A DNA stretch of 35,466 nt, taken from positions 1-35,466 of IMG/VR virus record IMGVR_UViG_3300033407_000913, one strand, 5' to 3'. Position 1 is the first letter of the stretch, and the number at the start of each line of letters is the position of its first letter. Below, one piece after another: positions 3,786-35,465 of the stretch. The DNA is from a virus. Taxonomy: Duplodnaviria; Caudoviricetes. Both the position numbers and the translations under genes were made by a program. The notes below the pieces were generated by a model. The model had not been told where the DNA came from and did not search any database. It saw nothing but the letters and a program-made list of their open reading frames with translations.

Positions 3786-4658
3786 TTACCCCGCAAGAGC
3801 GATCGTCCGCCCGACCGGCGGAATCAGCGTGCCCCCCGATCGGCGAATCGGATTCGTCACCGTCAAGTTGAAGCCTCCGCTCAAATCGATGAGACAGTCG
3901 CCGTGCATGGTCAACGTGCCGAGCGTGCGCACCAGGTCAGACTGGTTCAAGCTGAAGCGGTGATCCCCGCCGGCGTGCAGTTCGCCGATCGTTCCGTCTG
4001 AATTCCACTGCAACACACCCCCGTCGCAATCCGCCACCGCCAGGGCCGCGTGCTGGTCCGCCGCGCCCCGCGTGCCCAGGTCGAACAAGCCCCCGCTCTG
4101 AATCAGCCGCTCGATATCCGCCACGCTGCGGATCTGGCCGTGCACGAGTTTGACGATCGTCTCGTTGGTCACGAGGTCGAGGTCGGCATCGTCGATGACC
4201 AGGATGGCGCTGTCCGACTGCGCGGAGGGCGGGGCGTCCACGGTGATCCGCGACGCGGCGGGCGCCACGTGCGCGCCGATCAGCCGCACCAGCCCCTGGA
4301 GAATGTTCACCATGGTGAAGGCCCCGTCGACGGACAGGCCCGGCGCCGTCCTGGACGGAGAATCGCACACGATGTTCTCGAAATCCCCATCCAGGTAGAC
4401 CGCTTCACCCCCTCCGCACCAGCGCAGTTCGGTCGCGTTGCAGCGCAGAGCAGTGGGGACCCCGAAGGCGCAGCTCGGATGGAACACGATCCGGCTGAAG
4501 GTCTTGGCCGATTGATTCAGGCCGGCAGTGATCGCCCGGGTGGTGAGATGATTCAGCCCCCAGGCTTCGGCGGTCAAGGGGATCACGCCGGTATCCCAAT
4601 TGCCCCCGTCCCCGAAGTCGCCGCTCACCGAACCCACGAACCAATGCGGACCGGCCAT
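3786..4658 (-). CDS. Putative beta-solenoid tail/virion protein
   Basis: N-terminal WFVGSVSGDFGDGGNWDTGVIP resembles the WxG...NW...VP start of beta-helical adhesin/tail proteins; Gly-punctuated short strands; GGGAG RBS. Confidence 0.7.
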   Translation of the reverse strand: MAGPHWFVGSVSGDFGDGGNWDTGVIPLTAEAWGLNHLTTRAITAGLNQSAKTFSRIVFHPSCAFGVPTALRCNATELRWCGGGEAVYLDGDFENIVCDSPSRTAPGLSVDGAFTMVNILQGLVRLIGAHVAPAASRITVDAPPSAQSDSAILVIDDADLDLVTNETIVKLVHGQIRSVADIERLIQSGGLFDLGTRGAADQHAALAVADCDGGVLQWNSDGTIGELHAGGDHRFSLNQSDLVRTLGTLTMHGDCLIDLSGGFNLTVTNPIRRSGGTLIPPVGRTIALAG

Positions 4659-5702: not shown

Positions 5703-6017
5703 TCAGCGCGCGTCCAACAGGTGGGCCTGAATCGCCCGCGTATCGTCGCGGATGACGATCACCGCGTCGCGGATCACCGCGTACTGCTCCGCCATGACGC
5801 TTTGGATTTGCTCCATCCTTTCGAGGCGTTCGGAGTTGGCCCTGATATCGGCCAACCCGCGATCCGCCACCGGTTGATGCTCCGCCCGGTACATCTCCAG
5901 GTTCGTCACCCGCCCGTCGAAGCTCTTGATCGGGGCCACGGCCAAACTGACCAGCGTCCCCAATCCAACCAGGCTGGCCAGCCACCAGCCGATTTGCTCT
6001 TTGCGCTGTCCGCTCAT
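5703..6017 (-). CDS. Single-TM plus coiled-coil membrane protein (possible holin/lysis accessory)
   Basis: MSGQRKEQIGWWLASLVGLGTLVSLAVAPI TM segment followed by a heptad-rich helix. The start was shortened from the ORF track because the longer version runs through the repeat element. Confidence 0.7.
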   Translation of the reverse strand: MSGQRKEQIGWWLASLVGLGTLVSLAVAPIKSFDGRVTNLEMYRAEHQPVADRGLADIRANSERLERMEQIQSVMAEQYAVIRDAVIVIRDDTRAIQAHLLDAR

Positions 6018-6081: not shown

Positions 6082-6160
6082 GAAGTGAGAAGTGAGAAGT
6101 GAGAAGTGGGAAGAGCAAAGGGCCGTTTCTCTCTTCTCATTTCTCAATTCAATCTTCCCA
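6082..6160. repeat. Dispersed element, copy 2
   Basis: GAAGTGA x3 plus GAAGTGG, then GGCCGTTTCTCTCTTCTCATTTCTCAATTCAATCTTCCCA. Confidence 0.95.
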
Positions 6161-6439: not shown

Positions 6440-6547
6440 AAGAGTGAAGTCAGAAGTGAGAAGTGAGAAGTGAGAAGCCTGAAGTGCGACCCCCCTTCTC
6501 TCTTCTCAGTTCTCAATTCAATCTTCCCACTTCGGTTTTCTCTCTTC
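6440..6547. repeat. Dispersed element, copy 3
   Basis: Heptamer run, then TTCTCTCTTCTCAGTTCTCAATTCAATCTTCCCACTTCGGTTTTCTCTCTTC; overlaps the 3' end of the upstream ORF. Confidence 0.95.
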
Positions 6548-7069
6548 ACGCTTTCGATATCGAGCCACGCAGGGGTCGGAAAGACCCAGCAGCTCCCCGA
6601 CCGCGCAGTGCGGCAACACCGGGTCGTTGACCAGCACGTCCGTGATCGTCACCAGTTCCAGTCGGATGGTCCGATTCGCAATCTGCTTCCCAAAAATATC
6701 AGGCAGCCAGATTTCCGCGAGTTCCGCCCGCCGTTTCCGCAAGTAGGCGGCCAGCGGCGAGCGCAGCGCCCAGTTCCATTTGCAGACCCTGGCCTTCGCG
6801 TCGTAGAGATCGGCGCCCCGGCAAAAACGAGCGTTTCCGAATTTGGCGGGCCTGCGTGGTTTATCGCCGAGGGCCGGCCACCACGGGAGCGGCAGCGGAT
6901 CGGGATCGAGCGGCGGAACGGATGGAGGATTCGACGCCGCTCCGCGTGATCGGACCGGCACGCTCCCAGCGGTAGCGGTTGTAATACTCGATGAGCCTTC
7001 CCGCGCGTTGTGCGGCCTGCTCCCCCAAAGCGCGGCGAACGAGACGGTAGGCCTCGGCTTTCGTGGCAT
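6518..7069 (-). CDS. Putative HTH DNA-binding protein (true start uncertain, likely downstream of 7069)
   Basis: C-terminal DPVLPHCAVGELLGLSDPCVARYRKR fits an HTH pattern (xVGELLGLSxxxVxRYR). The N-terminal part overlaps the end of the giant gene and looks like shadow sequence. Confidence 0.5.
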   Translation of the reverse strand: MPRKPRPTVSFAALWGSRPHNAREGSSSITTATAGSVPVRSRGAASNPPSVPPLDPDPLPLPWWPALGDKPRRPAKFGNARFCRGADLYDAKARVCKWNWALRSPLAAYLRKRRAELAEIWLPDIFGKQIANRTIRLELVTITDVLVNDPVLPHCAVGELLGLSDPCVARYRKREERKPKWED

Positions 7070-10000
7070 AACGGCGAGTTATACTGATTCCAAACACCTC
7101 TTTCAAGAGCACGGGAATGAATTCTTCGTCCGACTCCCCGCGCACCGCGCGGTACAGGCGCAGCGCTCCCCGTTGGCCCAGGCTGGGAATGGGCGCCGAC
7201 TGCCAGGCGACATGGCTCGCCGCCTCCCAGAGCGCCAACCCTTCGCTCGACGAGCTGAGGTCCCGCCCGGTCCATTCCGAGCGGTTGAACATCACTTCAA
7301 GCAGCGGCCGGGCCAGCGGCTGATTGAGCAGGAAAGGCACGCCGAAACCCCCGGGTCCCGTGGCGACCCGGAAATCATTGGCCAGCGGGAAGATCCACCG
7401 AAGGTCGAGGGTCCGCACCCGCCCTCGTCCGTCGCGGAACGCCACCGGCTGAAAATACCGATCCGCCCACGTGTGCCGCTGGCGGTCGGTGTTGAGGATG
7501 GCCATTTCATCGTCGGTGACTCCGAAGACCAGGCGCGTCACCGCATTGAGCACGTAAGGGAAGGCGTAGAAGGCCAACACACGTCCCGGATGCTCGCGCA
7601 TCCCCTTGGCCGTGATCTTCAAGGCCTGATCGCTGAACGCGACGAATGGATCGCCCAGGGGGAAATTGCGCAGAAAACGGGCGGCGATGCCCAGCTTGCT
7701 GTAGTTCTGCAAGTATTTGAAACGGTCGCGGGCGAAGGATTCAGGGTGTCCCTGTTGCTCCACGTCGTGAATCCACACCGCCATCACCGATACCTCGTCG
7801 AGCAGCCCGTAGCCCCGCCCCGCGATCCGCGCGCCCTCCTTGGCCGCTTCAACCAATCGGGCCAGGACCGCCATCACATCGGTGGTCGGGGTGTCCAGCA
7901 TCGGCAGGATGGACTTGCGCAGCTTCTCGCGATCGTAGCCGCCGTGCATGGCGTTCATCCGCGACAGCCGCCGGTAGGTCGAATCCTCCAGCCCGCCGAG
8001 CACGCGGCGAAAGGCGTCGATGAACAGATCACGGTGCGTGTACGGATTCATCCCCAGCAACGTCCAGAAGTAGTGCTGCCCGTAGATCTGCCGAAACCAC
8101 GTGGCCGGGTTGTAGACAACGTGCGCGGAACGAAACGCGGTCAGCAGCGCCCGCCATGATCCGGCCAGCAGCCCGTTCATCGTCAGGCGAAATTCGTTAA
8201 GGTTGTAGAAAAGCTCCTCGCTGACATACTTGTCGGCCAGGGGGCCCAGGCCGGGATTGGCGTCCAGCCTCCGCCAATGATGCTTCTCCTCCTCGGGCAG
8301 CTCCAGGTACGCGACTTCCTCCATCGCCTCGGTCTGCGCCAGCTGGTGGAAGACGCGCACGCCGTCGATGAACGCGCGCATGTGGGTCAGCGACGCCACC
8401 GCGAGCAGCCCGATATCCTCCACCGGGCCGAGCCACTCCACCTGCTTGGCGCTGAAAGGCTTTTTGACCCGTACCCGCTCCTTGACCGACTCACCGAAAT
8501 ACTCGTGCCAGCGCAAGCGCTCGTTCTCCGCGAACTCGATCGCACTCTGTTCGTCGCTGAACTGCATCACCTGCCCTCGGGCCAGCGTGACCGTCCAGAG
8601 ATTGTCCGCCCGCTTCTCGCGCAGCATTCCGATCGGAATCCGCGGAGCGGCCAATTCCGTCGAGAAGGTCAACGGCCCGAAGCTGTGCTCCCCCGCGTCG
8701 TCGCGGTGCATGTGGTAGCGGCTGGTGAGAAACGCCCGCCCGCTCTCCCTCCGCATGCGCACGATCTGCTCCCAGTTGACCAGCCCGCCGCTTTTGGCGG
8801 CCTTCAACAGCATCGGGTCTTTGAGAATTTCGTCCGTCAGGGCGTTGGAGGCGCTCTTGTAGGCCGCAACCCAGGCCTTCAGGTCGTCGCTGAGCAGGCC
8901 CCAATCCCGCTTGCCCCGGGCCACGTCGATGAGCAGGCGGTGCTCGGTGGCGGTGAACGCGTCCCACGCCGTCAAGGGCATGCGCCGCACCACGTATCGC
9001 CCGGTCTTGCGCGCCGCGGTCAAGGCCTCGTCCACCACGGCCATCTGCCGGCCCAGCGCCTCATCGTGTTCCTCGCGTCCCAACAAGGGGCTGATCCGTC
9101 GTGGAACGGTTTCCCCTTCCGCGTCGCGCAGCGGCTTGACGTGCTGATCCCAGGCTTCGGCGATGTCGCGGGGCAGGGTGTCCGGCGATCGGTGTCCGCC
9201 TTCCATGACGGCGATCGCGGTTTGTCGAATCATCTGCCAGGCGTCTGGCGGCCAGGGCTTTCCGATCTGCGTCGCCCGCTTCTCGGAAAGCACCCCGGCC
9301 AGTGCCCCGGCCATGTCTTCCGCCAGACGCCGCTGCGTACCCTTCCCCCCGCGCAGATCGTCGAGCAGGAATTCACGGTTCCCTTCGATCTTCCACTCCG
9401 CGCCCCACAAAAGCCGGGCGATCGAGTCCATGTAGCGCTGCCCCGCCGGCGTCTTCATGTGTTTCAGGCGCGCTGCGATGCGGTCCCAATTGCGCGCATA
9501 CGCGGACCACAGCTTTTGCCGCACCGTGGTCGGTCCGGGCATCCCCCCGCTCATGGCGCCCATGCCCAGCAGCGGGCGGTGCCAGTTCTGGCGCATCCAC
9601 TCGCGCTCTTCCGGGGTGAGGTGCTCGGGGAGCAAAGACTCCTGCCGCGGCCCGAACCAGGGCGTATCTCCAGCCGCCCCTCCCCCTTCCCCTTCCCCTC
9701 CCTCCCGGGGCTCCTCCACGTCGGCGTCTTCCGCACCGAGCTCGGCCACGTGACCGTCGCCCTGGTTGGCGTTCTGTTCCGCCGCCGCGGCGATCTGGTT
9801 ACTCATCGCGCTGACCCGCGCGGCGAGGCGCTCCATTTCCTCCTGCCGTGCGAACGGTCGTCCGATCTCCGTCCGCACTTCCGCCAACTTCTCTTTGTTC
9901 TGCGCAAGGTCGCGCGCCCAGCCTTCGCCCGTCACCTCATCGAGGGCGTGCGCGAACCCCGTCACCCAGCTGCGCAATTGTCCGGCGGTCGGTTCCTGGC

Positions 10001-13000
10001 TGGCCGACCAGGTCAGGACACGGCGGAGCGGCAGGCCGACGTCTTTCGCAAACTTCTCGTGCGCCGCGGCGTCCGGCGGAAACTCGATACCCAACGCAAG
10101 GCGCTGTTCGCGCGACGCCCAGGCGATATCCCGGGCGAGCGTCACACGCAGGCCGCGGAAGGCGCCCACCGTGCGGGTTTCTTTCTCCTGGAAAGCGGCG
10201 GACGCCTTGAAAAGGGCCGTGCCCGCTTCGCCGTGCCTTTGGTAGGTTTCCTGCCCCACCTGCATCACGAACGGGACCGCCGGTTCGAGTTTCGCAACCC
10301 ATTCCACGAACTTGCGCCCCGGAGCGATCAGCGCCGCCAGTCGCCCGGCTTCACTCTTGAGCAGTGCCTCTTTGCTGCGCAGGGCCAGCTGCGTGTCGCG
10401 GTGGTAGCGGGCTTCACCCTGGAGTCGGCGCAGCTCGTGCTCGGCTTTGGTCCATTCGAGCACCGCCTTGTTCTCGCTGGACTCGGCCATCGCCATCTGG
10501 AAGGCCATCGTGTGCAGGTCGACGTCCTCGATCTCGTCGGCGTCGATGCGCCCGGAGAGGAAGTCGTTGTTCACCTTCTGCTTCGCGGCGAGAAGGGAGT
10601 ACATGAATTCGTCGGACATGCCCTTGGTGACATACCGATACAGCCGCACCTCGCGGTTGCGGTTGCCGCTGCGCACGACCCGCCCCACCATCTGCGTGAG
10701 CGTCCCCGGCTCCCACGCCGGTTCCAATTGGTGCAGGGCGACGGCGCGCTCCTGGGCGTTGATCCCCTCGCCCATCTTCTTCTTCGATCCGATCAGCACA
10801 CGAATATCGCCGCGATTGAAGGCCGCCAGCAACGCCTCGACCGCAGCGTCGTTGTCTTTCGCGTCGTAGATCGTGGCGATGTCGCGTGCGGCGACGCCGC
10901 CGGCCACCAGCTTGCCGATGAAGTCCTGATAGGTGGAGAACGGCATCCGGCTCCCCGGATTGCCCAGGTCCAGGAAGACCATTTGAGTCAGGCGCTCGGC
11001 GGCGGTCTCCTTGTAAATCTCGATGACTTTCTCCGCCGCGGCGGCCAGCTTGCCGCCCGGCTCTTCGGGCAGGTCGGGATAGATGAGGCGCATGTCCAGG
11101 GCCGCTTTTTTCTCATCCCCGATGACGGTGAGCATGATGTCGTCGCCCGGCTGGGGCGGTCTGCCCCCGCGAGCGCGAATGGCTTCTACTCGCCCGGCGA
11201 TCACCTTCTGGTATTTGCGCTGCGCCGCCGAGACCGGCAGCACCACCAGCTCGAACGTGCGTTTCCCCTCGCTGTTTTCCCGGACGACGGGCACCCCCCC
11301 TTCCTTGCTCAAGAGCACGCGGTCCAGTTCCTCCTGCGGCGTGGGGTGGGCGATCTTATCCCACAGCGCGTGGAGCCCGCGCAAATTCTGGAAGCGGCGC
11401 AGGCGGGTCACCATCTTGTAGCGCCCCGCGACCCGTTCGAGGTCGGGCGCCCCCACCGCGAACCAGCGGACCCAGTCGTCGAAGGAGGCGATCTGTTCGC
11501 TTTTCAAGACGTCGGGGATGAGGTAACGCATCATGGCGTAGATTTCGCTGATGCTGTTGTTGACCGGCGTTCCGGTGAGGAAGGTCACCCCGCGCCCGTT
11601 TTGCAGGCGGCTGACGTAGCGGGCCTTCATGTACAGGTCGAGGGTGATCTGGTTGCCTTCGCGGGGACCGAGTCCGCGAATGTTCTCCATCTGCGTCGTG
11701 TACTGGAGGTTTTTGCCCTTGTGGGCCTCGTCGTAGATGATCCAGTCCAGCCCCAATTCCTCGAAGGGCAGGACGTCGAGCTTGCGCACCGCCCCCACCC
11801 GGTCCTGAAGCTGGGCGCGCAGATTGTCGCGCATTTTTTCCATCTGCTTGACCGAGCGTTTCCCCGCTTTGCTGTCGTCTTTCGCACCTTCGCCGATCGC
11901 GTCTTCAAGGTCAGAGATCGCCTCGCCGTAGAATTCTTCGAGCGTCGCCTCGGACACCGGCAAAGCCTTGAACTGCTCGTGGGGCAGGATGAAGACCGTC
12001 TTTTCCGCGAGCGCCACGCGGGCCAGGGTCCGGCCGCGGGCCTTGCCGGCCAGGTCTTTCGTGGACAGGGCCACGAAGCGCCCGCCGGGGTAGAGCTGGC
12101 GGGCCTGTTTGATGAACTGGTTGAGCGTCTTGCGCGCTACCACCACGACGACCTTGCGGGCCAGACCCAGGCGAATCACTTCCATTGCCGCCGCCGTGGC
12201 GGTGAACGTCTTGCCCCCGCCCACCGCGGTGTAGATCAGGGTGTTGTGCGGACTGGATAACACTCGATAGACCCCGTCCTTCTGATAGCCGCGCAGGGTG
12301 ATCGAGGGGTTGGAGCCGGGCAGGGTCAGGTGACCGCCGTCATACTTCGTCGGGACCCAGTTGTGGTGTTGCTCGTTGTAGTCGGCGAGCAGTTTGGGTC
12401 CCCAGTGCGCGTGCGACCATATCCAAGTCTCGAAGTGCGCTCGAATCTCCTCCAGTTTGCTCCGCGCCGCGTCGGACGCCGCCTGGTCCGTGAACACCGC
12501 GCCGTCCGGCGTCTTGTCCGTCACCTTCGGGGTCTTCATGTTCAGCGCGTCGGCGAGCAGCTCCCCTGGGCTATAGTCCCGCGTGCCCCAGCGGTCGTTG
12601 GCGTAGTGGGGCGCCGAGACCGTCCAGCGGCCCGTCGCCGGCGAGCGGCGCACGCTCACCGAGCGGGCGGCCCCCTGGCCGATCAGGGAGACGAGGAAGT
12701 CCTCGATCGTTTCCGCGGGAATCCACGGGGCGCCGAGCACGGCGCGGATCCGGCTGGCGGGCAGATCGGCGGGCTGAACGGCGACGAGGGCGTCGACGTT
12801 GCCCTGGTACGTCGCCTTGTCCACCTTGAGCAGCGCGCGGGCCTCTTCCAGCTTGGCCCGGACGTTGCCGCTCAAGTAGTCCGCGGTGCTGACCACCTCC
12901 CCGGCGGGAAGCGGGAAGGCCGCCCCTTCGCGAATGAGGCGGCCCCGGGCCCCGTCCTCGTCGGTGTTGAGCAACTCGGCGATGCGGCGGAGGTCGATGC

Positions 13001-16000
13001 GGTTGAACTCGTCGAGGCTGATGCTCAGCGCGTCCGCGGCCGTCGCCGCGCTGGTCGGCCTCCGGTAGGCCTCCAGGATTCGCCGCGTGAAGACGTCGCC
13101 CTTCGCCGCTTTTTTGGTCTTGCGATCATACTCCTCGATCGAACCGAGCAACGACAAGGTCAGCGGATCGTCGGCGAGCAGCTCCGCGTTGGCCGAGGCG
13201 TGGATGGGGGTCACGCCGCGCCGCCCCAGGCGGTCGTACTCGTCGTTGAGACTCTTCTGTAACCCGGGCAGACGCTCGTCGCCGGCGGGATCAATCGATG
13301 CGCGGAGCAATTCCAGGAGGCGATCACGCAATCCGATCAGCCCCTTGAGGCGTTCGACCGCCTTATCCCCGCGGTCGGCACGAATCGAGGATTCGACCTC
13401 TTCCGAGGCCTCGCCCTTCCGCCCCGCGCGGCGCAACTGCCCCTCGCGCACGAAGTAGGTTCCCTGGGGCAGCCCGTCCGGCGTGGGGATGCTCGCGGCG
13501 ATGGTGTCCAGCGTCGCCAGCTCCGCCTCCCGCCGACCGAATACGTCGCCGGGCAGGGTGGCCAGCGCCGCGCGCAAGTCGGTGGCCAGGTCGAAGCCTT
13601 CGCGGGCTGCAACGATCGTGGCCGTCGCTCCTTCCTCTCCGCCGGCGTGCCGCGACCCGGGTTTGATCTCGCCCAGGACCATCTCCGGGTGCGTCTGAAA
13701 ATACTCGTTGATGTGTTTACCGGGCAGCGCCGCGTATGGCTTGCTCTCCAGCCAGGCCTCGCCGCCGGCCGGTTCGCCTTCCGCCCGCTTCCGCAAAAAC
13801 AGGATGTCGGCCGTGACCTTGGTTCCGGGCAGCGAATCCTCATTCAGCCGGACGGCGCCGAGAAGGTCTGCGCGGGCGGCGATATAGGCCCGTACCCGAC
13901 CGTCCAGCTTGTCCATGCTGCCCTTGGAGCTGATGAAAACTGCCAGTCCGCCAGGTCGAACAAGGTCCAGGGCACGCACGAAAAAATAGTCGTGGATGCG
14001 TCTTCGCAGCCACTTGGGATACCGCCGATCGTGAATGAGAAGGTCTCCGAAGGGCACGTTGCCCACGGCGACGTCGAAGTAGTTTTTGGGAAGCAGCGCG
14101 TTTTCAAACGGCGAATGACGAATGTCGGAAGCCGGATAGAGAGCGTGCAGGATCGCGGCAGACGTGTCATCTTTCTCGACAGCCACGCGGCGACTCGCAT
14201 CGGCCAGGTGCAGAGGCTGAAGACCCAGGAAGTGACCCACCCCCGCCGAGGGTTCGAGGACGGCGCCGCCACTAAATCCCATGCGCTCGAGCGTCTCCCA
14301 CAAGGCGGAGATGATCGCCGGCGGCGTGTACATCGCGTTTTGCGTCGATTGGCGGGCCGCTTTCCATTCTTCATCGCTCAGCAGCTCCTCAAGTGTCTCG
14401 TATTCGTCATGCCAGCCTGTCGCGCGGTCCCAGGCAGCCCCGGGATCGAACGGCTGCGGTACCGACCCCCACCCCTGGTAGCGCGAGAGGATATCGCGCT
14501 CTTTTGCGGTGGCTGCGCGACCTTCCTCCTTAAGCCGCTTGACCAGGCGAATCGCCTCCACGTTGCGCCGGAAGATCGTCTTGGCCGGGTTTTTTCCGGC
14601 CGCGAACAGGTCGTCGGGATCGCGGACGACGTAGTCGGTGAGTCCGCCTTTTTCCGCGGTATGCGCAGGCAGCTTTTCCTCCGCGCCTTCGACCCCTACT
14701 GCTCCTCGGGCAGGTCGAGATACTGGCTCGCCACCTGTTCGTAGGCTTCCTCTCCCGGCACCCCCCTGGACACCAGCTCCCCGATCGCCCTTGCCGCCGC
14801 GCGCTGTTTCTCCCACGCCCACAGGTGCACGCGGCCCGCCTCCTTCAGCTCCCGGTGCAGCTTCGGCCGGCTGTCCCTCAGCACGCGCACCGCCTCCCGC
14901 CCCAGGTTGTTCAGCCGGCTCTTCGCCTCTTCGTCGTTCGACGGGCTGTTCGGTTGGTCGCTCAAGGTCGGTCTCCTGTTTAATCGTAGTGGGTTTCGGC
15001 GACTTAGTCGACGATTGTGCGGCGGTTTGTGTGATCCCTTCCCACTGATTCAGCGCCGCGTGCAGCTGCCCTGAGTCGGGCAGCGCAGGGGGAAGCTCCT
15101 CCAGGAAGCGGATCGTCGCGCGCAGGCTGCGGGGTAGTTTTCGCCCGGTCAGGCGCTCGTAGAGCGCCCGAGTCTTGCGGTTCTGCGGGTAGAGCAGCGA
15201 GCGCATCTTCTCCGGCAAGTCGGCGAAGCGCGGGGCCGTCAGGACGTTGTACATCGCCTCGGCCCACGGCTCGTGACTGGCCATCGCGTCGGCGTCGCTT
15301 ACTTGCTCGTCGGGGCGGAGGCTGCGGACGAACCCTCCGGCAAGGCGGACGATGGCGCTCGCGACGGGGCCTGTGTCGCCGGCAGCGTCAACTTTTTTTG
15401 TAACTCCTGCAACGCCCACAGCTCCGGCTTCGCCCGTCCCCGCGCCTTGATCGTCAGGCGCCGTGCCAGGCGGTGGTCGCAGTCCAACTTCTTCACGGCT
15501 CGTTTCACGAATCGCTCCTTCCGTCTCAGGAATCGCCCCTTCAGTTTCACGAATTGCCTCTTCAGTTTCACGAGGAGTCTCCGGTCGATCAACGTAAAAA
15601 TCCCGCTTCTCCAGGTCCCATTCCCAGCCGTGTACGTCGGTCACGCGGGCGCCTTCCGGGGTCGTTTCCACGGAGTCCACGACGACAGGGGTGCGGGCCA
15701 GGCCGGGAATACGGTCGCCCGGATTTAGGTCCTCGGCCCGGACGCGAATCCGCCTGGAGGACGGCAATGAGATCTCTGTGCCTCTGTGCCTCTGTGCCTC
15801 TGTGCCTGTCTCGGGGCTTATTTCTTTTTCTTGGGCTTCGGTGGGCAGCCGCTCAGCGCCGCGGCCACCGCCTGGTCCTGCGGGCGCCAGGCCTTTTTCA
15901 TCTCCCGGACGTTCTTCGAAACGGTCTTGCGGTCGCATCCCTTCTTCAACGGCATCTCTCTCTCCTTGCGCTGGAATGGTCTGGACGAGCGACTCAGCGC

Positions 16001-17930
16001 CGCTCGGTGGCATGGCAGGGGATGGGGCGGGCGGCCTGACGCCCGCCCCACGAGGAGGAACGCCCCCCTCGCTTGGTAGCTCTGGCGCTCCGGTCGTTTC
16101 CTCAACGTCCGGTAATAGATATTCTGTTGCTTTGGAAATTGTACGCTCTTGCTGAACACCCGCTACCGGTGGTGGTGGCGGGAAATAAGTTGCCGAAACC
16201 GGTGGTATCTCTTCCGTTCCCGGCGGCGGCGGTGCGGGTCTGGGTCGCGGCGTCTCGCGGAAGGCGTCTTTGGCCATCTCCGCAATCTGGCGGAGACGCT
16301 TTGGTTCCGGGGCCAGTGCGGCAGCACCCAGCGCCGCCCCCGGCGGGAGCATGAACCCGGCGAATTCAGCGGAAAGCTGATTCCAGCCCGGCCAGATCGG
16401 CTGCTGTTGCAGGGTGCTCGCGCCTCCCGCCGCTTCAATCGTCGCCTTGGCCGTCGATTCCATCAGCGTCGCGACCCGTTCCTCGCCGATCTCCTCGAAC
16501 GCATTGTTGACCCCGACCTCGCGCAGGTGGGCCCAGGCCACCTGAAACGTCGCGTACTTGCCGGGAAATCGGTTGACCAACTCGGCGGCCAGAGCGGTGC
16601 GCGTGCGGGCGATCCATTCACCGGAGCGCTCCAGCGGAACCGCGATCACCCGGGCCACGGGAAGCTTGGCGCCCCATTTGGCCAGGGCCATGCCCGCCCG
16701 CCCTACATTGGTGGCCGCGATGCCCAGGGCTTTTCCGGTGTATTCGCTGTACACCTGGATCACCGCGTTGATCGAGGAGTCGCGGAGGGCGCCCATGAAC
16801 GGCTGCCCGGATTCGGTGACCGCCGCGGCCAGGGCCTCGTCGTCTCCGGGCTGCACTTGGTAGCGGGGCAGCATGCGCCGGACGGTGTCTACGCCGGTCT
16901 GAAGAGCGATCGTGGGAATACCCCGCTGGACCGTCTCCGCTGCCGCATGTGTCAGGACGCGGGGGATGGTCTGTGTCGCCCCTTTCGCCGCCAGCTTCGT
17001 GAGGGCCTCCGCAGCGGCCTTGCTGAGCGTCTTACCTCCCACCCTCGCGGCTGCCGCTTTCGCCCCTTTTGCGACCAGACGGCCGACGCCCCCGCCCAGG
17101 GCCAACTCGCCCATGAAGGGGATGCTCTCCGCGGGAATGCTCGCCACGGTCCCGCCCCAGGTCTTGCCCCGGCTTTCGCGGGCGATGCGCTCCTGGAGCC
17201 CGGTCAGAACCTCAAAGTCGTCCGCGGTCCCCTCCCCCCGCGTCGTCCGCCCCAACGCCCGGTGGACCTTGACCAGTTCGGCCCCGGTCAGCGCATGCTC
17301 CACGTAAGGCAGCTTCTCCACCAGGCCGCGCACCGTCCCGAATTCCCGGCTAGTAACCTGGGTAAACGTTTCCGGTCCGGGTAGCTGGGTAAGCGGTTCG
17401 AGTCCGTAGCCCCGTCGAAAGACGTTTAGGAAACGGCGTTTCCCTTCTTCACTTTCCAGTTGCGCAAAGTAGGGATGTTCGCGGGCTTCGATCTCCGCCT
17501 GGGCCGCGAACGCACGCTCCGCGATCTGTTCCTCGCGCGTTTTTTTGGGCGGACCGCCGGTGAGGGTCTCGACCAGAGACCGCCCCATGCGTTTGAGCAG
17601 GCCGGGTTTTTCGGTGGCGGGACCGACCGGCGTGGGCGGTTCGGACGGTGTTCGGTAGGGTACGGTGCGCGCAGGCGGCCAGGGCGGCGGTGCGGCCGGG
17701 GTGGGTCCGCGGAAATCCGCCGGCGCCTGGTCGCCGCGCCCGAAGAATCCGTCGAGCATCCCCTCGTGGCTTCCGCCCAGAGGTTCCAGGGGGCGGATGG
17801 AACGCACCAGTTCTCCGACGGGTGCACGGTGGCCGTTGAGCGGGTTGATCGACTCAACCAGGGAACCCGGCGGGTAGCCGTGTTCGCGGGCGATGCTTTC
17901 TCCCGCCAGCTCCAGGAGGGGATCGGGCAC
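6861..17930 (-). CDS. Giant DarB-like polyvalent protein: N6-adenine methyltransferase + SF2 (SNF2-like) helicase with large N- and C-terminal extensions
   Basis: 3689 aa; GGAGG RBS. MTase motif I LEPSAGVGHF (14229-14258) and motif IV NVPF (14049-14060). Walker A AVGGGKT (12207-12227), DEAH (11721-11732), TGTP, GEGINAQ, motif VI QMVGRVVRSGN. Located right after the ejection genes. Confidence 0.92.
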   Translation of the reverse strand: MPDPLLELAGESIAREHGYPPGSLVESINPLNGHRAPVGELVRSIRPLEPLGGSHEGMLDGFFGRGDQAPADFRGPTPAAPPPWPPARTVPYRTPSEPPTPVGPATEKPGLLKRMGRSLVETLTGGPPKKTREEQIAERAFAAQAEIEAREHPYFAQLESEEGKRRFLNVFRRGYGLEPLTQLPGPETFTQVTSREFGTVRGLVEKLPYVEHALTGAELVKVHRALGRTTRGEGTADDFEVLTGLQERIARESRGKTWGGTVASIPAESIPFMGELALGGGVGRLVAKGAKAAAARVGGKTLSKAAAEALTKLAAKGATQTIPRVLTHAAAETVQRGIPTIALQTGVDTVRRMLPRYQVQPGDDEALAAAVTESGQPFMGALRDSSINAVIQVYSEYTGKALGIAATNVGRAGMALAKWGAKLPVARVIAVPLERSGEWIARTRTALAAELVNRFPGKYATFQVAWAHLREVGVNNAFEEIGEERVATLMESTAKATIEAAGGASTLQQQPIWPGWNQLSAEFAGFMLPPGAALGAAALAPEPKRLRQIAEMAKDAFRETPRPRPAPPPPGTEEIPPVSATYFPPPPPVAGVQQERTISKATEYLLPDVEETTGAPELPSEGGVPPRGAGVRPPAPSPAMPPSGAESLVQTIPAQGERDAVEEGMRPQDRFEERPGDEKGLAPAGPGGGRGAERLPTEAQEKEISPETGTEAQRHRGTEISLPSSRRIRVRAEDLNPGDRIPGLARTPVVVDSVETTPEGARVTDVHGWEWDLEKRDFYVDRPETPRETEEAIRETEGAIPETEGAIRETSREEVGLRPPPGTAPDDQGAGTGEAGAVGVAGVTKKVDAAGDTGPVASAIVRLAGGFVRSLRPDEQVSDADAMASHEPWAEAMYNVLTAPRFADLPEKMRSLLYPQNRKTRALYERLTGRKLPRSLRATIRFLEELPPALPDSGQLHAALNQWEGITQTAAQSSTKSPKPTTIKQETDLERPTEQPVERRRGEEPAEQPGAGGGARAEGQPAEAAPGAEGGGPRAPVGVGETARGGKGDRGAGVQGGAGRGSLRTGGEPVSRPARGAVGVEGAEEKLPAHTAEKGGLTDYVVRDPDDLFAAGKNPAKTIFRRNVEAIRLVKRLKEEGRAATAKERDILSRYQGWGSVPQPFDPGAAWDRATGWHDEYETLEELLSDEEWKAARQSTQNAMYTPPAIISALWETLERMGFSGGAVLEPSAGVGHFLGLQPLHLADASRRVAVEKDDTSAAILHALYPASDIRHSPFENALLPKNYFDVAVGNVPFGDLLIHDRRYPKWLRRRIHDYFFVRALDLVRPGGLAVFISSKGSMDKLDGRVRAYIAARADLLGAVRLNEDSLPGTKVTADILFLRKRAEGEPAGGEAWLESKPYAALPGKHINEYFQTHPEMVLGEIKPGSRHAGGEEGATATIVAAREGFDLATDLRAALATLPGDVFGRREAELATLDTIAASIPTPDGLPQGTYFVREGQLRRAGRKGEASEEVESSIRADRGDKAVERLKGLIGLRDRLLELLRASIDPAGDERLPGLQKSLNDEYDRLGRRGVTPIHASANAELLADDPLTLSLLGSIEEYDRKTKKAAKGDVFTRRILEAYRRPTSAATAADALSISLDEFNRIDLRRIAELLNTDEDGARGRLIREGAAFPLPAGEVVSTADYLSGNVRAKLEEARALLKVDKATYQGNVDALVAVQPADLPASRIRAVLGAPWIPAETIEDFLVSLIGQGAARSVSVRRSPATGRWTVSAPHYANDRWGTRDYSPGELLADALNMKTPKVTDKTPDGAVFTDQAASDAARSKLEEIRAHFETWIWSHAHWGPKLLADYNEQHHNWVPTKYDGGHLTLPGSNPSITLRGYQKDGVYRVLSSPHNTLIYTAVGGGKTFTATAAAMEVIRLGLARKVVVVVARKTLNQFIKQARQLYPGGRFVALSTKDLAGKARGRTLARVALAEKTVFILPHEQFKALPVSEATLEEFYGEAISDLEDAIGEGAKDDSKAGKRSVKQMEKMRDNLRAQLQDRVGAVRKLDVLPFEELGLDWIIYDEAHKGKNLQYTTQMENIRGLGPREGNQITLDLYMKARYVSRLQNGRGVTFLTGTPVNNSISEIYAMMRYLIPDVLKSEQIASFDDWVRWFAVGAPDLERVAGRYKMVTRLRRFQNLRGLHALWDKIAHPTPQEELDRVLLSKEGGVPVVRENSEGKRTFELVVLPVSAAQRKYQKVIAGRVEAIRARGGRPPQPGDDIMLTVIGDEKKAALDMRLIYPDLPEEPGGKLAAAAEKVIEIYKETAAERLTQMVFLDLGNPGSRMPFSTYQDFIGKLVAGGVAARDIATIYDAKDNDAAVEALLAAFNRGDIRVLIGSKKKMGEGINAQERAVALHQLEPAWEPGTLTQMVGRVVRSGNRNREVRLYRYVTKGMSDEFMYSLLAAKQKVNNDFLSGRIDADEIEDVDLHTMAFQMAMAESSENKAVLEWTKAEHELRRLQGEARYHRDTQLALRSKEALLKSEAGRLAALIAPGRKFVEWVAKLEPAVPFVMQVGQETYQRHGEAGTALFKASAAFQEKETRTVGAFRGLRVTLARDIAWASREQRLALGIEFPPDAAAHEKFAKDVGLPLRRVLTWSASQEPTAGQLRSWVTGFAHALDEVTGEGWARDLAQNKEKLAEVRTEIGRPFARQEEMERLAARVSAMSNQIAAAAEQNANQGDGHVAELGAEDADVEEPREGGEGEGGGAAGDTPWFGPRQESLLPEHLTPEEREWMRQNWHRPLLGMGAMSGGMPGPTTVRQKLWSAYARNWDRIAARLKHMKTPAGQRYMDSIARLLWGAEWKIEGNREFLLDDLRGGKGTQRRLAEDMAGALAGVLSEKRATQIGKPWPPDAWQMIRQTAIAVMEGGHRSPDTLPRDIAEAWDQHVKPLRDAEGETVPRRISPLLGREEHDEALGRQMAVVDEALTAARKTGRYVVRRMPLTAWDAFTATEHRLLIDVARGKRDWGLLSDDLKAWVAAYKSASNALTDEILKDPMLLKAAKSGGLVNWEQIVRMRRESGRAFLTSRYHMHRDDAGEHSFGPLTFSTELAAPRIPIGMLREKRADNLWTVTLARGQVMQFSDEQSAIEFAENERLRWHEYFGESVKERVRVKKPFSAKQVEWLGPVEDIGLLAVASLTHMRAFIDGVRVFHQLAQTEAMEEVAYLELPEEEKHHWRRLDANPGLGPLADKYVSEELFYNLNEFRLTMNGLLAGSWRALLTAFRSAHVVYNPATWFRQIYGQHYFWTLLGMNPYTHRDLFIDAFRRVLGGLEDSTYRRLSRMNAMHGGYDREKLRKSILPMLDTPTTDVMAVLARLVEAAKEGARIAGRGYGLLDEVSVMAVWIHDVEQQGHPESFARDRFKYLQNYSKLGIAARFLRNFPLGDPFVAFSDQALKITAKGMREHPGRVLAFYAFPYVLNAVTRLVFGVTDDEMAILNTDRQRHTWADRYFQPVAFRDGRGRVRTLDLRWIFPLANDFRVATGPGGFGVPFLLNQPLARPLLEVMFNRSEWTGRDLSSSSEGLALWEAASHVAWQSAPIPSLGQRGALRLYRAVRGESDEEFIPVLLKEVFGISITRRYATKAEAYRLVRRALGEQAAQRAGRLIEYYNRYRWERAGPITRSGVESSIRSAARSRSAAAPVVAGPRR
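14696..14965 (-). CDS. Nested out-of-frame gene, TnpV-like small helical protein
   Basis: TTG with AGGAG 7 nt upstream. LGREAVRVLRDSRPKLHRELKEAGRV...EAYEQVASQYLDLPEE resembles the TnpV-type pattern YGRxxxxxLKExRPxxYxEL..GxL...AEExV. Confidence 0.7.
   Translation of the reverse strand: MSDQPNSPSNDEEAKSRLNNLGREAVRVLRDSRPKLHRELKEAGRVHLWAWEKQRAAARAIGELVSRGVPGEEAYEQVASQYLDLPEEQ
14983..15011 (-). promoter_or_regulatory. Internal sigma70-type promoter for the nested gene
   Basis: TCGACT-N17-TACGAT directly upstream of TAAACAGGAG, in a locally AT-rich patch. Confidence 0.5.
15502..15572. repeat. 21-bp in-frame coding repeat (RETEEAI/RETEGAI/PETEGAI/RET)
   Basis: Visible in both DNA and translation of the giant ORF. 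Confidence 0.85.
15774..15805. repeat. (CTCTGTGC)4 octamer repeat inside the giant ORF
   Basis: Four perfect 8-mers. Confidence 0.95.
15818..15955 (-). CDS. Nested out-of-frame gene, 45-aa basic MPLKKG-type phage protein
   Basis: ATG with AAGGAG 6 nt upstream. MPLKKGCDRKTVSKNVREMKKAWRPQDQAVAAALS matches the pattern of a common small phage protein (MPLKKGxSxKTISxNI..M..GxPQxQAVAIALS). Confidence 0.75.
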   Translation of the reverse strand: MPLKKGCDRKTVSKNVREMKKAWRPQDQAVAAALSGCPPKPKKKK

Positions 17931-17936
17931 GTTGCG

Positions 17937-19196
17937 TCACCCTCCGTTCCGCGTCCCCTGGGCGGCGCTCAGCTCCTCAGGCGTGAACAACAGACGCAGA
18001 TACTCGTCGGCCTTCCGCGCCCCCTGGCTCCGCGGGGATTCCACCGCCGGCGCCGGACCCCTGCCCCTAAAAAGGTAGTCGAACATCGATTTCTGCTCCG
18101 GCTGAGGATCGAATTGCCCCGCTTCCCACGCCCCTCGAATCTCCTGCGGCGTCTTCCACGGGGCCTTTTGGCGAAGGAGTTTGCGCAAGAGTTCCCCTTG
18201 GCGACTGCTCGCCGTGCTCATCCGCGTTTGCACGAACTGGGCGAGGCGCTCGAAGGCCTGGACCGGGTCGGTGTCCCACAGGGGATGGTTGGCCCAGCCG
18301 GGCGTGCCCAGGGCGGCGTCGCCGTACAGGTCGCGGTCCAGGCTGCCCTTGTCCAGCAGGGATTCCTCGGCCTTGGGTCGCCGTTTTTCAGCGGCCAGCT
18401 CGCCGAGAATGTCCCGCGAGGGTTTCCCCTCGGCCTTCATCTCGGCGATGGCTTCGGCGGTCAGTCGCCCCATCGGATCGGCCATCGTCGCCCCGCCGGT
18501 CCCGCCCTTAGCCGCCCCTGCGGCGCTGGACAGGGCGCCCACCGGATCGTCCGGGTTGCGCGCGTACTCCTGGTCGAAGGCCGCCTTAAAGGCCGCGTCC
18601 TGAGGCGAAAGCTCGGTGCGGCGGCTTTGGGCCGCGATACGGGCGCCCAGCTCTTCGCGGCGTACTCCCAGCTCTTCGCGGCGTAGTCCCATCTGTTCGT
18701 CGGCCAACTGGTCCTGCCGCCCGTACCGGGCCTGCTGCTGGGCGTTCCCCACGCTGGCCTGATACGCCGCGTACCCTTGCTGCATCATGGCCCACTGCCG
18801 TTTGCTGATCTTCCGCTGATCGGCCAGATTGGGCATGAACCGTCTGAGCCACTCGGGAGGGGACAAGAGCCGCGGTGCGGCGGACGCTGCGCGCGCAGCC
18901 GCGGGGTTGGTTTGCAAGGGCGCGGCGGAGGGAGGAGGTTTCTCTCCGCCGCTCGGGAAGTCCGCAGGAGGCGGCGTTAGGCCCCCTGCCCCCGGTCGGA
19001 GGTTCGTCGGCTCATCCAGGGAAGAGCCTGATTGCCGCAGGCGATCGCGGTAGAGCACGTCGCGCTCCCGGGCCAGGGCTTGCAACGCCAGGTTCCGGGG
19101 CGCCGTCTCGTGCGCCGTATCGATCATGAAATCAGCGCCCGGCGGCCCCACGTAGTTGCTTCGCTCGGCGAGATCGAACAGTTCGTTGTTGAGCAT
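17937..19196 (-). CDS. Probable ejection/internal virion protein
   Basis: Helical, Ala/Gln/Arg-rich with a GLRREELGVRREELG repeat; GAGG RBS before ATG 19196 (alternative start 19202); position. Confidence 0.7.
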   Translation of the reverse strand: MLNNELFDLAERSNYVGPPGADFMIDTAHETAPRNLALQALARERDVLYRDRLRQSGSSLDEPTNLRPGAGGLTPPPADFPSGGEKPPPSAAPLQTNPAAARAASAAPRLLSPPEWLRRFMPNLADQRKISKRQWAMMQQGYAAYQASVGNAQQQARYGRQDQLADEQMGLRREELGVRREELGARIAAQSRRTELSPQDAAFKAAFDQEYARNPDDPVGALSSAAGAAKGGTGGATMADPMGRLTAEAIAEMKAEGKPSRDILGELAAEKRRPKAEESLLDKGSLDRDLYGDAALGTPGWANHPLWDTDPVQAFERLAQFVQTRMSTASSRQGELLRKLLRQKAPWKTPQEIRGAWEAGQFDPQPEQKSMFDYLFRGRGPAPAVESPRSQGARKADEYLRLLFTPEELSAAQGTRNGG

Positions 19197-24862: not shown

Positions 24863-24880
24863 GAATCACACTATTTCAAG

Positions 24881-24975
24881 CAGGCATAAAGGCAGGGACG
24901 AAGGCGCCAAGGCACGCAGACCTTTGTCCCTCTGCGCCTCTGTGCCTATGTGCCTGCCTTTGTGCCTGCCTCTTC
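24881..24975. repeat. Intergenic degenerate AGGCAC/GTGCCT inverted octamer array
   Basis: Left arm AGGCATAAAGGCAGGGACGAAGG; right arm CCTTTGTCCCTCTGCGCCTCTGTGCCTATGTGCCTGCCTTTGTGCCT. Confidence 0.75.
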
Positions 24976-24979
24976 CCTC

Positions 24980-25903
24980 TTACACCGACGGCGTGCCGAT
25001 CAGGATGCCGGTCTCCGCGTTGTTGTTGACCACCTTGTTGTCGAACAGTTGCCAGAGGCAACCGGCGCCCATCGTGATGTGCGCGAGGCTGGTGTCCGTC
25101 GGATTGCGCAATTTGTTTTCCACGATGGAACCCGAGCTGGCCACGGCCGCACATTCGATGCACTTGTTGCTCGCGCCGTTGAGCTGGTGAATCACGTTGT
25201 TGGCCACCAGGAGGTCGGTGGCCGCGGCGCTCACATAGATGGCCGCCTGGCTGTATTCCCCCTCGATCTTCGCGCCGCTGATCTCCAGGCCATGATTCCC
25301 CGTCCCGACTTCGATGCAACTCACGGGGCCCGCCGTCTTCTGCCGGGCCCGGAAGCGGTTGATCCGCACACGATTGTTCGTGATGAGTATCCCGGTCAGG
25401 GTCTGGAGTGAGGTTTCGTACAATAGAAAGTCATTCAGCTGCGCGTCTTCGCCCGTGATGCTCAACTGCTTGGTGACCGCGTCGAGGAACGTGCCGATGA
25501 TGAAGCGGTCCATGCGCACGTTGTTCGCGCTGATGACCCAATGGGCCCCGACCACCGAATCGGTCCCGATGCTGGGCCGAAAACTCCCCTGCCCGCAGCC
25601 GATGACGGTCATCCCGGGGACGTTGAAATCCAGCTCCGCCGCGGCGCTCACCGTTTCCACGTGCCGTGGCCCCACCACCACAACGTCGCCCGTGGACGCC
25701 AGGCTCACCGCTTTTTTAAGGGTCTTCAACGGTGCGTCGGGGTTTTGCCCCGAGTTGTTCACGTCCGTGGCCCGGGTGTGCACGCTCTGCACGTACAAGA
25801 GGTTTTGCCAGGGATGTTGCAAGTAAGATTGGGCGTTGAGGGCCATGACCAGAGAGGGGCCGCCGCGTTTGACCATCGTCTGGGTGATAATGCCGGATGC
25901 CAT
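24980..25903 (-). CDS. Right-handed beta-helix virion protein
   Basis: NSGQNPDAPLKTLKKAV...GDVVVVGPRHVETV cap motif followed by repeated beta-helix rungs; AAGGAG RBS. Confidence 0.8.
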   Translation of the reverse strand: MASGIITQTMVKRGGPSLVMALNAQSYLQHPWQNLLYVQSVHTRATDVNNSGQNPDAPLKTLKKAVSLASTGDVVVVGPRHVETVSAAAELDFNVPGMTVIGCGQGSFRPSIGTDSVVGAHWVISANNVRMDRFIIGTFLDAVTKQLSITGEDAQLNDFLLYETSLQTLTGILITNNRVRINRFRARQKTAGPVSCIEVGTGNHGLEISGAKIEGEYSQAAIYVSAAATDLLVANNVIHQLNGASNKCIECAAVASSGSIVENKLRNPTDTSLAHITMGAGCLWQLFDNKVVNNNAETGILIGTPSV

Positions 25904-35081: not shown

Positions 35082-35465
35082 CTAACCCTCGTGCGCGCCT
35101 TGTGGCTGGTCGCAAGCGGCGTAACCCTCCGAAGGCTTGGGCGGCTTTGCCCATTCTTCGAGCAGGTCCTCGCGGACGAATTGCAACGCGAGGCCGTTTT
35201 GCTGCACCGCGGCCATCACGACTTCGGGCGTCTGCTCGCGGACGAATCGCAACGCGAGGCCGTCATTCTGCACCGCGGCCATCACGACTTCGGGCGTCTG
35301 TTCCAGGACGTATTGCAACGCGTAGCCGTCATTCTGCACCGCGGCCAGCACCACCTCGGGCGTCTGTTCCAGGACGTATTGCAACGCGAGGCCGTTTTTC
35401 TCCACCGCGGCCAGCACGACTTCGGGCGTCTGCTCGCGGACGAATCGCAACATGTAGCCGTCTCG
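35082..35465 (-). CDS. DUF4116-like 22-aa repeat protein (5' truncated)
   Basis: Tandem ALQYVLEQTPEVVLAAVQNDGY-type units with 66-bp period; frame open to the window edge. Confidence 0.85.
   Translation of the reverse strand, partial: RDGYMLRFVREQTPEVVLAAVEKNGLALQYVLEQTPEVVLAAVQNDGYALQYVLEQTPEVVMAAVQNDGLALRFVREQTPEVVMAAVQQNGLALQFVREDLLEEWAKPPKPSEGYAACDQPQGAHEG

Follow-up and report, generated by a model that had tools for sequence, protein, structure and literature searches.

Phage genes embedded in other genes are not new. In the Rz/Rz1 pair of phage lambda a small gene lies entirely within a larger one, in the +1 frame, an arrangement that gene callers usually miss (PMC6139136, available text). 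Giant polyvalent methyltransferase-SWI2/SNF2 proteins have also been described (Iyer et al. 2017, PMC5512222, available text); like P1 DarB, they have an adenine methyltransferase fused to an SF2 helicase and are encoded by a giant gene within the structural module. The available main text of that paper mentions no nested genes, TnpV or linker, and a literature search for DUF6496 or for nested genes in such giants, which covered sources other than subscription journals, returned nothing relevant. Embedded +1 genes are thus already known from Rz/Rz1, and no published report of nesting in DarB-like giants was found. A third point of comparison is ORF22 of Pseudomonas phage vB_PaeM_SCUT-S1, a relative of the small gene described here that stands as a separate gene.

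The window, the whole 35,466-nucleotide stretch analyzed, is a 35.5-kb virus record, 79% complete, whose minus strand carries terminase, portal and major head genes. The same strand holds a giant open reading frame (ORF) in which a methyltransferase and an SF2 helicase are fused, as in the DarB-like polyvalent proteins. A match to phrog_10089 (DarB-like antirestriction) spans giant residues 911-2735, and a Pfam search of the giant returned helicase domains. The layout runs from an N-terminal domain through a variable linker (residues ~560-1085), the methyltransferase and the helicase to a C-terminal region. Inside the linker, overlapping residues ~660-705, sits a complete small gene, one of the features listed in Table 1.

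Table 1. Features of the giant gene and of the genes and signals nested in its linker (window coordinates).
Feature	Position	Strand	Remarks
DarB-like giant host gene	6861-17930	-	3689 aa, polyvalent protein
Nested basic microprotein gene, 45 aa, phrog_2423 family	15818-15955	-	+1 frame of giant
Shine-Dalgarno sequence AAGGAG of small gene	15962-15967	-	6 nt before ATG
AT-rich patch with TACAAT (16138-16143)	16104-16158	-	Possible internal -10, without -35
8-bp tandem repeat, 4.2 copies	15774-15807		11 nt after small-gene stop
Second nested gene, 89 aa, TnpV-like	14696-14965	-	+1 frame, directly before methyltransferase domain
Candidate third ORF, 69 aa, AAGGAG-6-GTG	15299-15508	-	+1 frame

The preliminary description had placed here a 45-residue protein gene in an alternative frame, behind an AAGGAG-N6-ATG start, and this is what the sequence holds. 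As in Rz/Rz1, the small gene lies wholly within another ORF, in the +1 frame and with its own start signal, but the likeness is one of layout only. The small protein has neither the transmembrane nor the lipoprotein signal of a two-component spanin. Unlike Rz/Rz1, moreover, the host gene is of virion type, spans 11 kb and contains two or more nested genes, and the family is dominated by free-standing forms. AAGGAG followed after 5-8 nt by a start codon occurs just twice in the giant, both times in the +1 frame and in the same linker. The product is basic (pI 10.4) and hydrophilic throughout, and is predicted to fold as a two-helix hairpin (residues 9-21 and 26-35) with a Lys-rich tail (pLDDT 82.8).

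Profile comparison, proposed as the test of the 45-mer, assigns it to phrog_2423 (E 3.4e-9, residues 1-36 of the small protein against the 52-position model), and 59 of 74 candidates are homologs, of 44-69 aa. In PHROGs v4 this family has no assigned function; it overlaps Pfam DUF6496 (PF20106). The small protein itself gives no DUF6496 match at E 0.1, while 22 of its 60 aligned homologs do, so the two are related. The family was said to be widespread and normally free-standing, and it is both: about 14,000 IMG/VR stretches match its patterns, and only 4 of 142 evaluable members are nested in the two sets that were picked without a DNA pattern. Thirteen of the 16 positions conserved in at least 90% of 164 free members are retained in the window copy, the departures being G23W, S8D and I16V. 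Position 23 falls in the turn of the predicted hairpin, where 98% of the free members have Gly and not one has Trp; the same letters in two further runs argue that Trp23 is not a sequencing error. In score, 99% of the free set exceeds the window copy, but that set was itself picked for high scores. A PDB sequence search with the small protein returned nothing, a fold search gave no PDB match at E 0.001, and the top named rows in BFVD were uncharacterised phage proteins.

The clearest clue to function comes from SCUT-S1. Its gp22 belongs to the family (phrog_2423, E 1e-28) and is equated with ORF22 by numbering and product name, the computed mass of 7.41 kDa differing slightly from the 7.46 in the paper. 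Its gene sits between head-morphogenesis and protease genes. ORF22 is listed among the proteins of LiCl/DNase-treated, DNA-free SCUT-S1 particles, with table values of 7 and 77% that are read here as peptides and coverage (PMC6521218, available text). Deletion of orf022 in mutant S1_200L left a viable phage with unchanged capsid size (PMC12552142, available text); the available text of PMC10974960 does not mention ORF22. The window gene shares with ORF22 the N-terminal MPL...N...QA.A motif and the size class, but differs in lying wholly inside another ORF and in having Trp for the conserved Gly. Because the SCUT-S1 homolog is found in virions and can be deleted, the small-gene product is likely a translated accessory virion protein; its placement in the head and its binding partner there are our inference. 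Free copies have late genes around them. Their 94 neighbors comprise 28 without a match, 13 of function unknown and 53 with a named PHROG category, and a manual count places 37 of those 53 in head, connector or tail. The module also occurs in longer proteins. In 97 of the 120 best it begins within the first 20 residues, and in BcepB1A it opens the head maturation protease, followed by a Nudix-like stretch.

Are homologs nested elsewhere, as the preliminary description suggested checking? An earlier regular-expression screen caught only 41 of 80 loci, and a family HMM was used instead over the window and the fetched loci, leaving aside the methyltransferase loci L081-L170 and a duplicate of the window (L174). 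It yielded 173 distinct members that have a start codon where the model begins. Seven of these are nested, each flanked on either side by 100 or more open host codons, always in +1 and never in +2. Simply asking whether the host frame stays open across the small ORF gave 23 of 173 members in the +1-type arrangement and 3 in the other frame. Most matches of the DNA-pattern searches were to sequences outside the family; in the two sets picked without such a pattern, nesting was seen at 1 of the 72 viral loci and 3 of the 70 genome loci that could be evaluated. The seven copies lie in two DarB-like giants (those of the window and of genome record G003), in a 1604-aa gene (L171) and in four further long ORFs. 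An eighth copy lies in +1 of the DarB giant of record G004 (locus L172), where the N-terminal part of the giant is out of frame. G003 (locus L173) and G004, both complete records, carry the small gene 3' of the N-terminal domain, and in each the nested copy is the sole family copy found. None of the matches listed (60 of 125, 60 of 478 and 60 of 466) could be recognised as a cultured phage that carries the gene in nested form.

A methyltransferase tree of 29 chosen rows places the giants of the window, L091, L092, G003 and L172 in one clade (support 100/99), and the small gene is nested in three of these five. It was not found in L091 and L092, the nearest giants, whose records are 59% and 86% complete. 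A minimum of two changes, such as a gain and a loss, is needed to produce this pattern. The N-terminal domain of the window giant has no detectable homology to those of G003 and L172, so recombination is also possible. Among genomes with nested copies the methyltransferase distance exceeds 1.2 changes per site. In a peptide tree of 60 members, too poorly resolved to count origins, the nested DarB copies have branches of 0.67-0.94 against a median of 0.17.

Both frames are under selection across the nested copies, as judged from identity, codon choice and linker simulation. Identity over 21 pairs of nested copies is 58% in the small frame against 31% in the host frame, which argues that the peptide is no by-product of the host frame. 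Conversely, T at the third position of the small frame, in contexts where it would create no host stop, occurs in 5 of 132 cases over eight copies against 30.7 expected from each host gene's codon usage, three of the eight being related; for the window copy alone the figures are 1 and 1.6. This avoidance where no host stop arises suggests that the host protein is constrained as well. When the three +1 peptides were kept constant, none of 5000 simulations kept the giant frame open over the 525-codon linker (mean 11.7 stops). A relative is represented by two low-depth contigs, which show 13 differences, 8 of them at third positions of the giant frame; at 15649-15691, four of six changed codons are silent in that frame and none in +1. 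The earlier claim that the linker is double-coded is in this way upheld across the nested copies, with the small frame conserved and the host frame constrained.

The proposed promoter fared less well. TACAAT does lie in an AT-rich patch, within the most AT-rich 40-mer of the giant (35% GC), but it is a lone -10: it is one of three sites that match TATAAT at five or more of six positions, the best -35 matches at 2 of 6, and a promoter scan returned 0 sites. No common -10/-35 pattern precedes the eight nested copies, and the 17 runs listed include no RNA dataset. A GC-rich hairpin at 16021-16050 (minus strand) is one of three stems between the -10 box and the Shine-Dalgarno sequence (SD). The leader and the region 3' of the small-gene stop fold no better than shuffles (z -0.9 and -1.0, respectively).

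The small gene was also suggested to have belonged, with the TnpV-like gene, to a former mini-operon through which the giant now reads. The product of the TnpV-like gene has no match to TnpV (PF14198) in Pfam; the corresponding ORFs of L091 and L092 reach 30.4 and 29.0 bits against a cut-off of 27, and a homolog occupies the +1 frame of the giant of phage POI1126. In giants of cultured phages, 9 of 10 have a 102-132-aa +1 ORF with an SD before the methyltransferase, unannotated in the records shown. An HMM of such ORFs matched at 58 of 89 evaluable DarB-type loci (L081-L170), always in +1, 10 of the 58 being seeds. The MPLKKG gene, as the microprotein gene may be called from its N-terminus, was not found in L081-L170; in L093 it lies outside the fetched part. 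In the window the two are ~850 bp apart, and the intervening stretches look selected in the giant frame. From these distributions the TnpV-like gene appears to be old and near-fixed, and the MPLKKG gene an occasional one that enters unrelated hosts. The linker thus does hold nested genes, but a one-event origin is doubtful when the TnpV-like gene is present in 58 of 89 loci and the MPLKKG gene in 3 of 5 clade members. Because one is near-fixed while the other comes and goes, separate captures into a tolerant linker would fit better than one swallowed operon.

The candidate third ORF gave no Atlas match, and no homolog was found; it overlaps a 21-bp repeat at 15501-15573. The codon signature favors +1 at giant residues ~780-850. 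Similar ORFs with SDs occur in +1 inside other giants, as pairs of 67-69 aa in PBC5 and Atu_ph08 (L085, L090) and of 61-76 aa in VvAW1 and Pavtok (L083, L088), and singly in Gerry and CSP3 (L087, L089). In Pseudomonas phage Itty13 (L082, NC_070969.1) the giant frame exceeds 4100 codons, and the record lists neither giant nor nested gene and annotates three opposite-strand ORFs over the giant frame.

Continuity of the giant, which was to be verified with reads, could be confirmed on either side of the 8-bp repeat but not across it. In the probable source run two contigs cover 13500-15802 and 15778-18200 with 1 and 0 differences. They meet inside the repeat, so its copy number has no independent check, and no contig passes through it into unique sequence at both ends. 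Parts of the small ORF are also covered, with 0 differences, by contigs from three other runs. A joint of 14335 to 16221 in two runs is likely a foreign contig, with low depth, a lax threshold and a Gly-rich frame on the other strand; another foreign contig, from the source run, shares its flanking sequence exactly with L172. Adding or removing one or two repeat units makes the upstream ORF end at 729-785 aa, with the small gene still inside. A miscount could split the giant, then, but not un-nest the small gene. L172 has 8-bp repeats at 5976-6004, before the nested-gene SD, and at 4225-4261, before the giant's start; collapse in assembly or slippage would explain why its giant is out of frame at the former. 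In the window a long intergenic hairpin (24865-24985, minus strand, z -5.3) has a 5' arm that uses the unit of the 15774-15807 repeat; the 7-mer GAAGTGA forms arrays of 3.6-4.6 copies at 2675-2699, 6082-6113 and 6446-6477; and a 66-bp repeat of 4.3 copies at 35169-35451 lies in an ORF that matches three PHROGs of unknown function.

What, then, is the small gene doing inside the giant? The account that we consider probable, with a good deal of room for others, is that a phrog_2423 gene in the linker is likely translated from its own ribosome-binding site to give what is likely an accessory, non-essential head component. That the peptide arose by chance from the Glu/Gly/Arg-rich linker can be set aside. 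Frame-shifted acidic linkers do yield Lys/Arg-rich peptides, but the match to a family of free-standing genes (E 3e-9), the presence of an SD and a small-frame conservation about twice that of the host frame refute it. Could the giant instead be two genes joined through a wrong repeat count? The unbridged repeat would allow it, but L091 and L092 join an N-terminal domain homologous to the window's (41% over 577 aa) to the methyltransferase in one frame, L092 has a giant of 3704 codons against 3692 in the window, and the repeat lies 3' of the small gene, which would stay nested in the shortened ORF; such an artefact is very improbable. A decaying relic, captured with its signals, once active and now drifting while only the giant frame is selected, deserves more attention, though it too is unlikely. 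The changes G23W and S8D at conserved positions, the long branches of nested DarB copies, the absence from L091 and L092 and the dispensability of the S1 homolog would all be expected of it. Yet start, SD, stop, family-typical length and Lys tail are intact, most conserved positions are kept, nested copies have persisted over the methyltransferase distances given above, and a second constraint from the host frame would lengthen branches as well.

The repeat itself invites another model, in which slippage toggles between the full giant and a short N-terminal protein while the nested genes keep their own starts. Its copies lie just 3' of the small-gene stop, where a gain or loss of one or two units truncates the giant; and in L172, where 3.6 copies of a different 8-mer stand directly 5' of the SD, a single unit would explain the frame offset of the giant's N-terminal part, whose homologous region in G003 is continuous. 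Against this, repeats of this kind collapse in short-read assembly, the units are also found at ordinary gene borders (24921-24955 in the window, 4225-4261 in L172) and may be plain intergenic repeats, the window unit recurs in many foreign contigs, and no contig has a different copy number. A slippage switch is improbable. A more far-reaching speculation, itself rather improbable, would have the hairpin act as a portable head-addressing tag, carried on proteases and Nudix enzymes or nested in injected giants, where it would aid loading of the giant, with slippage at the 8-bp repeat switching the methyltransferase-helicase cargo.

If the small gene encodes an accessory head component, its history might run as follows. 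The small gene would be the older frame, and the giant, as it lengthened, would have extended its frame across it, since almost any hydrophilic sequence is tolerated in the linker. The +1 frame would be favored because of the Leu-Lys codon pair in MPLKK: Lys after a Leu codon whose last letter is G or A, the usual case, creates TGA or TAA in the other frame. Expression would come from the late structural transcript, perhaps aided by the internal -10 box, and the gene's own ribosome-binding site would yield a 5-kDa basic peptide. The peptide may be incorporated in the head, as the S1 homolog is found in virions; there the helix hairpin would probably bind the protein shell or its internal proteins, so that the Lys tail could still reach DNA.

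Annotation overlooks genes hidden in the linkers of giant phage virion genes; in this linker there are at least two within 1.3 kb. Because the family is linked to a protein that was detected in virions and can be deleted in a cultured phage, its role can be tested directly. If the module does prove to be a head-addressing tag, it would explain the packaging of some internal cargo and would provide a small tool for loading phage heads.
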